434 nt of DNA from a phage. Where the stretch lies: the sequence record MW984357.1, one strand, 5' to 3'. The position numbers and the translations under genes are program-made. Numbering within the stretch: position 1 is the first letter of the stretch; each line of letters opens with the position of its first letter. Under the pieces are notes generated by a model. The model was not told the origin of the DNA. It ran no database searches and saw only the letters and a list, made by a program, of their open reading frames with translations. Shown piece by piece: positions 1 through 434 of this stretch.

Positions 1-434
1 CTCACGTGCTACAGCTTTTTCGCAAAATCTTTAGTGGTACCTTTCTATTCTCACTCTCAGAATAGTCCGATTCTTCAGTATTGGTTGGCGCGGGGTGGAG
101 GTTCGGCCGAAACTGTTGAAAGTTGTTTAGCAAAATCCCATACAGAAAATTCATTTACTAACGTCTGGAAAGACGACAAAACTTTAGATCGTTACGCTAA
201 CTATGAGGGCTGTCTGTGGAATGCTACAGGCGTTGTAGTTTGTACTGGTGACGAAACTCAGTGTTACGGTACATGGGTTCCTATTGGGCTTGCTATCCCT
301 GAAAATGAGGGTGGTGGCTCTGAGGGTGGCGGTTCTGAGGGTGGCGGTTCTGAGGGTGGCGGTACTAAACCTCCTGAGTACGGTGATACACCTATTCCGG
401 GCTATACTTATATCAACCTCTCGACGGAATACAC
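1..434 (+). CDS. gIII: Filamentous-phage gene III (minor coat protein pIII/g3p) with N-terminal displayed-peptide fusion; partial at both ends, frame 1
   Basis: Frame 1 is open across all 434 nt. Translation from position 31 gives LVVPFYSHS-QNSPILQYWLAR-GGGS-AETVESCLAKSHTENSFTNVWKDDKTLDRYANYEGCLWNATGVVVCTGDETQCYGTWVPIGLAIPENEGGGSEGGGSEGGGSEGGGTKPPEYGDTPIPGYTYIN..., which matches my memory of M13 pIII (signal peptide C-terminus, N1 domain, Gly-rich linker, start of N2). No in-frame start codon for the leader is present in the window. Positions 1-28 and 418-434 deviate from the canonical sequence. Confidence 0.9.
29..57 (+). other. C-terminal portion of pIII signal peptide (…LVVPFYSHS), ending at the leader peptidase cleavage site after HS
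   Basis: Codons tta gtg gta cct ttc tat tct cac tct at 31-57 match the M13KE leader, including the engineered gtg gta cc (KpnI) change from wild-type gtt gtt cc. Upstream of position 29 the sequence no longer matches the canonical leader (MKKLLFAIP). Confidence 0.85.
36..41. other. KpnI/Acc65I site (GGTACC), the engineered 5' cloning site of M13KE-type display vectors
   Basis: Exact GGTACC at 36-41 inside the signal-peptide coding region. Wild-type M13 has GTTGTTCC here, so the site indicates an engineered vector. Confidence 0.85.
58..93 (+). other. Randomized 12-codon library insert encoding displayed peptide QNSPILQYWLAR
   Basis: 36 nt lie exactly between the leader end (tct cac tct) and the ggt gga ggt tcg spacer. 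The codons are cag aat agt ccg att ctt cag tat tgg ttg gcg cgg, and all 12 end in G or T (NNK), as expected for a degenerate-oligonucleotide library. No in-frame amber codon. Confidence 0.9.
94..105 (+). other. GGGS flexible spacer (ggt gga ggt tcg) between displayed peptide and mature pIII
   Basis: The sequence ggtggaggttcg directly precedes gcc gaa act gtt (AETV, mature pIII N-terminus). This spacer is the standard one in Ph.D.-type vectors as I recall. Confidence 0.85.
104..109. other. EagI site (CGGCCG), the engineered 3' cloning site of the display cassette
   Basis: Exact CGGCCG at 104-109, spanning the spacer Ser codon and the Ala1/Glu2 codons of mature pIII. Confidence 0.85.
122..143 (-). 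other. Binding site of the standard -28 gIII sequencing primer (5'-GTATGGGATTTTGCTAAACAAC-3')
   Basis: The + strand gttgtttagcaaaatcccatac at 122-143 is the exact reverse complement of the primer as I recall it. Its 3' end lies 29 nt downstream of the insert end, consistent with the primer name. Confidence 0.75.
190..209 (-). other. Binding site of the standard -96 gIII sequencing primer (5'-CCCTCATAGTTAGCGTAACG-3')
   Basis: The + strand cgttacgctaactatgaggg at 190-209 is the exact reverse complement of the primer as I recall it. Its 3' end lies 97 nt downstream of the insert end, consistent with the primer name. Confidence 0.75.
307..366 (+). repeat. In-frame 15-nt tandem repeat (gag ggt ggY ggN tct; four units, the last ending act) encoding the pIII glycine-rich linker EGGGS-EGGGS-EGGGS-EGGGT between N1 and N2
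   Basis: Units at 307-321, 322-336, 337-351 and 352-366. Units 2 and 3 are identical (gagggtggcggttct), unit 1 differs at two wobble-like positions, and unit 4 ends act (Thr) instead of tct. Confidence 0.9.
367..434 (+). other. Start of pIII N2 domain (F-pilus-binding domain), truncated by the window end; the last ~17 nt deviate from canonical
   Basis: Translation KPPEYGDTPIPGYTYIN matches canonical pIII. After that the window reads ...LSTEY where I expect ...PLDGTY, consistent with one missing C in the CCC run near 417-418 plus substitutions in the last 7 nt. Confidence 0.7.

Follow-up and report, generated by a model that had tools for sequence, protein, structure and literature searches.

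The window, by which we mean the whole 434-nt stretch of DNA analyzed here, is the sense strand of a clone of the NEB Ph.D.-12 type in M13KE, which carries type 3 display on pIII. Between positions 103 and 427 it is 97.5-98.8% identical to gene III of the Ff phages (wild-type M13, JX412914 and NC_003287, as well as f1 and fd). Frame 1 is open throughout the window and reads LTCYSFFAKSLVVPFYSHS-QNSPILQYWLAR-GGGS-AETVESCLAKSHTENSF, followed by N1, the glycine-rich linker and the beginning of N2. We identify the clone as M13KE/Ph.D.-12 because the KpnI site, the Ser-His-Ser (SHS) end of the leader, 12 NNK codons, the GGGS spacer, the EagI site and both gIII sequencing-primer sites are all present (Table 1). 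The window also shares with such a clone the 3′ half of the leader in which the KpnI/Acc65I site lies, the AETVESC start of mature pIII and a T at position 136, and it departs from it only at its two ends, positions 1-28 and 417-434. Wild-type Ff gene III has leader codons that are in register with the window from base 16, but it contains neither the 36-nt insert nor the spacer nor the two engineered restriction sites, and its codon at the place of window 136-138 is CCC (Pro), against TCC (Ser) in the window. Aligned to wild-type M13, the window has 48 nt inserted behind the leader, and two substitutions within the leader create GGTACC.

The reference used for the alignment was composed of the upstream sequence of JX412914, the M13KE leader, the insert as it stands in the window, the spacer and gene III of JX412914, with the M13KE sequence taken from M13 and fd records and from published primers. 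The M13KE primer TTATTCGCAATTCCTTTAGTG gives the same leader flank (PMC6769167, PMC11348169, PMC6294585), and two further M13KE primers cover the leader flank (GTGGTACCTTTCTATTCTCACTCT) and the spacer/EagI flank (GGTGGAGGTTCGGCCGAAAC, a mutagenesis primer) (PMC5925455). The exact 28-nt vector-specific pattern at window positions 30-57 had no match in viral, genome or metagenome contigs, and the plasmid collection gave no match that could serve as an independent copy of M13KE.

Table 1. Features of the 434-nt window, in window coordinates.
Feature	Position	Strand	Basis or remark
Uninterpretable stretch, probable read end, at the place of M13 1576-1593 (AAC GTG AAA AAA TTA TTA; start codon and Met-Lys-Lys-Leu-Leu)	1-18	+	5/18 ungapped identity to the canonical leader
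GTG inside the palindrome CACGTG (3-8), out of the pIII frame	6-8	+	Frame 3
TTCGCAA, leader codons probably read correctly (Phe-Ala-Ile region)	19-25	+	7/7, in register with the downstream sequence
AAT in place of vector TTC, three consecutive probable miscalls	26-28	+	0/3, with perfect matches on both sides; canonical bases from M13 and fd records and primers
M13KE leader, intact 3′ half (..LVVPFYSHS)	29-57	+	29/29 identity to the expected M13KE sequence
KpnI/Acc65I site GGTACC engineered in the leader (GTG GTA CCT TTC TAT TCT CAC TCT)	36-41	+	Matches published primer GTGGTACCTTTCTATTCTCACTCT (PMC5925455)
Signal-peptidase cleavage	after codon 55-57	+
Random 12-codon library insert, peptide QNSPILQYWLAR	58-93	+	Directly after Ser-His-Ser; missing from wild-type M13
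GGGS spacer (94-105); the whole reads GGTGGAGGTTCGGCCG, then AETVESCLAKSH	94-109	+
Engineered EagI site CGGCCG, overlapping the first codon of mature pIII	104-109	+	GGTGGAGGTTCGGCCGAAAC in an M13KE mutagenesis primer (PMC5925455)
Mature pIII (AETVESC...)	106-416	+	Identical to JX412914 except T136
pIII domains: N1; glycine-rich linker; N2	106-306; 307-360; from 361	+	Limits per PMC8310372
gIII sequencing-primer sites, ~28 and ~96 nt downstream of the insert	122-143 and 190-209		Exact matches
Probable degraded 3′ read end: CC for CCC at 417/418 (one-base frame shift); AATACAC at 428-434 for CACTTAT	417-434	+	Alignments

Between positions 29 and 416 the sequence is clean. The c-region of the signal peptide and its cleavage site are present, with VVPFYSHS intact at 34-57 and the mature end following. 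The sole difference from the reference in this core is T136, which replaces Pro with Ser at mature pIII residue 11 and which differs from every wild-type Ff record that we compared. Judged from the sequence comparison, T136 is a base of the vector lineage, since 122-143 is an exact match to the published primer GTATGGGATTTTGCTAAACAAC. This primer is named the "-96 gIII sequencing primer" in a protocol paper (PMC13014060); its site begins 29 nt after the insert, making it the -28 primer, and the -96 site is the one at 190-209. At position 210 the window has C, as does JX412914, where NC_003287 has T. Three tandem 15-nt repeats (GAGGGTGGCGGTTCT, EGGGS) at 306-365 correspond to the glycine-rich linker that normally joins N1 to N2.

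The standard sequencing read for this kit is antisense, is obtained from virion DNA and starts at the -96 primer. The present read gives the sense strand and continues for 225 nt past the -96 primer site, and is therefore not a standard kit read. The best fit is a forward primer that anneals shortly before gene III, in the gene VIII/III intergenic region, with double-stranded DNA as template. We favor the forward direction because the pattern at the 5′ end resembles the first bases after a primer and the pattern at the 3′ end resembles a fading read, and the opposite read direction could also apply.

The window opens with ctcacgtgctacagctttttcgcaaaatctttagtgg, which does not read as a gene III leader. 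The first-pass annotation had reported this divergence against the canonical leader, ...CAAC GTG AAA AAA TTA TTA TTC GCA ATT CCT TTA GT..., and the alignment bears it out with 16 mismatches in the first 28 nt, compared with 0 unexplained differences in the next 388 nt. The divergence at the 5′ end is far beyond chance. The canonical leader itself is present in JX412914 and in fd J02451, but its GTG start is not true of all public M13 records. The gene III start is ATG in V00604.2 and NC_003287.2 (position 1579) and GTG in JX412914 and fd, and it is annotated as "valine start" in f1 V00606. The annotation had also held that the window matches only at 19-25 and from 29 onward; this stands for 19-25 and for 29-416, but further downstream one C is missing at 417/418 and the letters at 428-434 are garbled. 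The alignment to M13KE for which it had asked places all differences in 1-28 and 417-434, apart from the vector-specific T136.

Within the first 28 nt the ungapped identity to the canonical leader is uneven (Table 1), and BLAST picks the same ungapped register, pairing window 16-56 with M13 1591-1631. Bases 1-18 resemble the leader only at chance level, and the score of their local alignment to it was reached by 10195/20000 shuffles. We searched the M13 genome for these 18 bases and found no match at ≤3 mismatches, the best having 6 mismatches, and a search of phage and plasmid records with bases 1-32 returned only matches with E-values of 0.3 or worse. By contrast, a 7/7 in-register run such as that at 19-25 is expected by chance about once in 1000 (an estimate from 22 positions × 4^-7). 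Since this run lies in register with the intact leader downstream, we take the stretch to be misread leader and not foreign DNA.

Foreign DNA would nonetheless be one way to account for the first ~18 bases, which could be a primer tail (an oligonucleotide with CTCACGTGCTACAGC), an adapter, a cloning-vector remnant or one side of a chimeric junction near 18/19. Leader identity at chance level in 1-18 agrees with such an origin, and the palindrome CACGTG at 3-8 is a PmlI site, which could suggest a designed tail, although a 6-base palindrome is unremarkable among 28 noisy bases. There is no match for the tail in M13, and its matches in phage and plasmid records are at chance level. In addition, a junction would leave both the mismatches at 26-28 and the damage at the 3′ end unexplained, so that miscalls would be needed anyway. 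We therefore regard a foreign tail as improbable.

We considered what the opening would encode if it were read as it stands. The pIII frame begins with LTCYSFFAKSLVVPFYSHS, and here the earlier claim that it contains neither a usable start nor a Met-Lys-Lys is confirmed. The first start-type codon (ATG, GTG or TTG) of frame 1 before the insert is GTG 34-36, the Val codon of LVV, and a start there would leave no signal peptide, so the statement that no usable start exists stands. As the window reads, it thus contains no in-frame start codon for the signal peptide, and the ribosome-binding site lies upstream of the window. Nor is there a Met-Lys-Lys n-region with an uninterrupted hydrophobic core, since LTCYSFFAKSLVV replaces (M)KKLLFAIPLVV. 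The GTG at 6-8 had been placed in frame 3 with a TAG stop at 63-65, and translation bears this out, with frame 3 reading HVLQLFRKIFSGTFLFSLSE up to the stop. This GTG could be the genuine start codon, moved out of place by a miscount of bases, or could match by chance; a gapped alignment sets ACGTG at 4-8 on the canonical ACGTG, but the match is not significant, since 2061/20000 shuffles of bases 1-8 score equally.

Taken as real, the opening would be a mutated gene III leader that uses an upstream in-frame start and exports pIII by way of an N-terminus that lacks the Lys-Lys n-region. Frame 1 is open from base 1, and M13 has an in-frame TTG that precedes the normal start by 12 nt without an intervening stop, both of which are compatible with an alternative start. 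However, ~16 changes in 28 nt would then sit beside 388 unchanged bases, and the resulting N-terminus would not only lack Lys-Lys but would have a Lys interrupting the hydrophobic core. The signal sequence of G3p is 18 residues long and makes contact with SecY, and in display constructs the insert lies between this signal peptide and mature G3p (PMC8310372). G3p needs its signal sequence, and the earlier argument that a real change of this kind would abolish pIII export accords with published work (PMC8310372). No relative with such a leader appeared in any collection searched, and the frameshift at the 3′ end would also have to be real, or else be an artefact of separate origin. A genuine variant leader is thus scarcely credible.

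The defect at the 3′ end bears directly on the interpretation of the 5′ end. If the missing C at 417/418 were real, pIII would go out of frame in N2 and would end at a stop at codon 183, counted in the window frame. M13KE carries only one gene III. At face value, two independent lethal lesions would therefore sit exactly at the two ends of the read in a vector with a single gene III, and for this reason we favor an artefact of reading. The clone was propagated and sequenced, and its leader must therefore have been functional and its N2 undamaged, as G3p needs its signal for the Sec pathway (PMC8310372).

We conclude that the record is very probably a single read of Sanger type, left untrimmed, that covers the 5′ part of gene III in a Ph.D.-12 clone and in which the base-caller misread bases 1-28 at the read end. 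In such a read, positions 1-28 would correspond to the start of gene III with the 5′ half of the signal-peptide coding region. The errors would run from pure noise at 1-18 through a correct call of 19-25 and three miscalls at 26-28 to clean sequence from 29, and 417-434 would decay likewise. The actual clone would then almost certainly have a normal leader, GTG AAA AAA TTA TTA TTC GCA ATT CCT... (MKKLLFAIP...), with GTGAAAAAATTATTATTCGCAATTCC as the expected leader sequence. It is from the error pattern that we infer base-calling as the cause. The errors are gathered at the termini around an error-free core (388 nt, 29-416, no unexplained difference), and the garbled part lies in its true register (7/7 at 19-25) with no other source for it found in the M13, phage and plasmid searches. 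The first-pass annotation had preferred a low-quality read end, and this preference is supported by the confinement of errors to the termini, the in-register 7/7 match, the second defect at the 3′ end and the lack of another source for 1-28.

The ends of raw Sanger reads show noise, stray correct bases, homopolymer undercalls and garbling. The window is like typical read ends of this type in its terminal errors, miscounted bases, homopolymer undercall and sharp switch to perfect sequence, but it differs in that decay at the far end sets in at ~420 nt, earlier than usual. On a modern capillary instrument, a read of 434 nt normally stays clean to its far end. A read-end artefact thus needs an extra circumstance to be assumed, for example a template that was short or poor, an instrument of an older type or trimming that was only partial.

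Two other accounts would place the fault in the record or in the sequencing reaction. The first is that the letters were changed once sequencing was complete, through editing by hand, a corrupted file or a deliberate change to the record. The restriction of the changes to short terminal stretches would agree with this, but the succession of noise, a correct 7-mer, three errors and clean sequence, with a homopolymer undercall and then garbling at the opposite end, is that of raw read ends and has no evident purpose as an edit. For deliberate alteration in particular, which the first-pass annotation had named beside a poor read end, we found no positive support, and we consider alteration of any of these kinds unlikely.

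The second account is mixed signal at the start of the read, arising from secondary priming or primer-dimer at the -28 primer site. A repeat finder pairs 13-29 with 121-137 (14/17), the latter overlapping the -28 primer site, and the 13/16 identity for 13-28 was equalled by only 12/2000 plain shuffles. However, the canonical leader already shares 8 of the matched bases, and when the erroneous bases alone were randomized, 1677/3000 simulations explained as many errors (6/7) at some offset. The match of the whole of 1-28 is ordinary (416/2000), and mixed signal would in any case still be an artefact. We give this origin almost no weight. The internal look-alikes 13-29/121-137 and 7-14/222-229 (8/8) were accordingly rejected as traces of mixed signal and are attributed to chance, at 1677/3000 with the correct bases held fixed. 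The miscalls AAT at 26-28 recreate GCAAAATC as it occurs at 130-137, which is within chance by the same count (1677/3000).

The oddity at the 5′ end is thus almost certainly an artefact of base-calling and not a real change of the signal peptide, and as such it would be neither novel nor of biological meaning. Its consequence is one of data hygiene only, in that bases 1-28 and the final 18 bases need to be trimmed off or masked ahead of annotation or translation; left untrimmed, the record would be called a pIII fusion without a start codon and with a frameshift. A true change in the leader would bear on the tolerance of pIII export to signal-peptide changes, for which there is no support here. 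The useful content of the record is the displayed peptide QNSPILQYWLAR, which is cleanly read. A search of 8 million papers for this peptide gave no match, which suggests that it is neither an obvious binder from the literature nor one of the well-known target-unrelated peptides. All 12 of its 12 codons have G or T in the third position, the NNK pattern, for which the chance expectation is ~1 in 4096.
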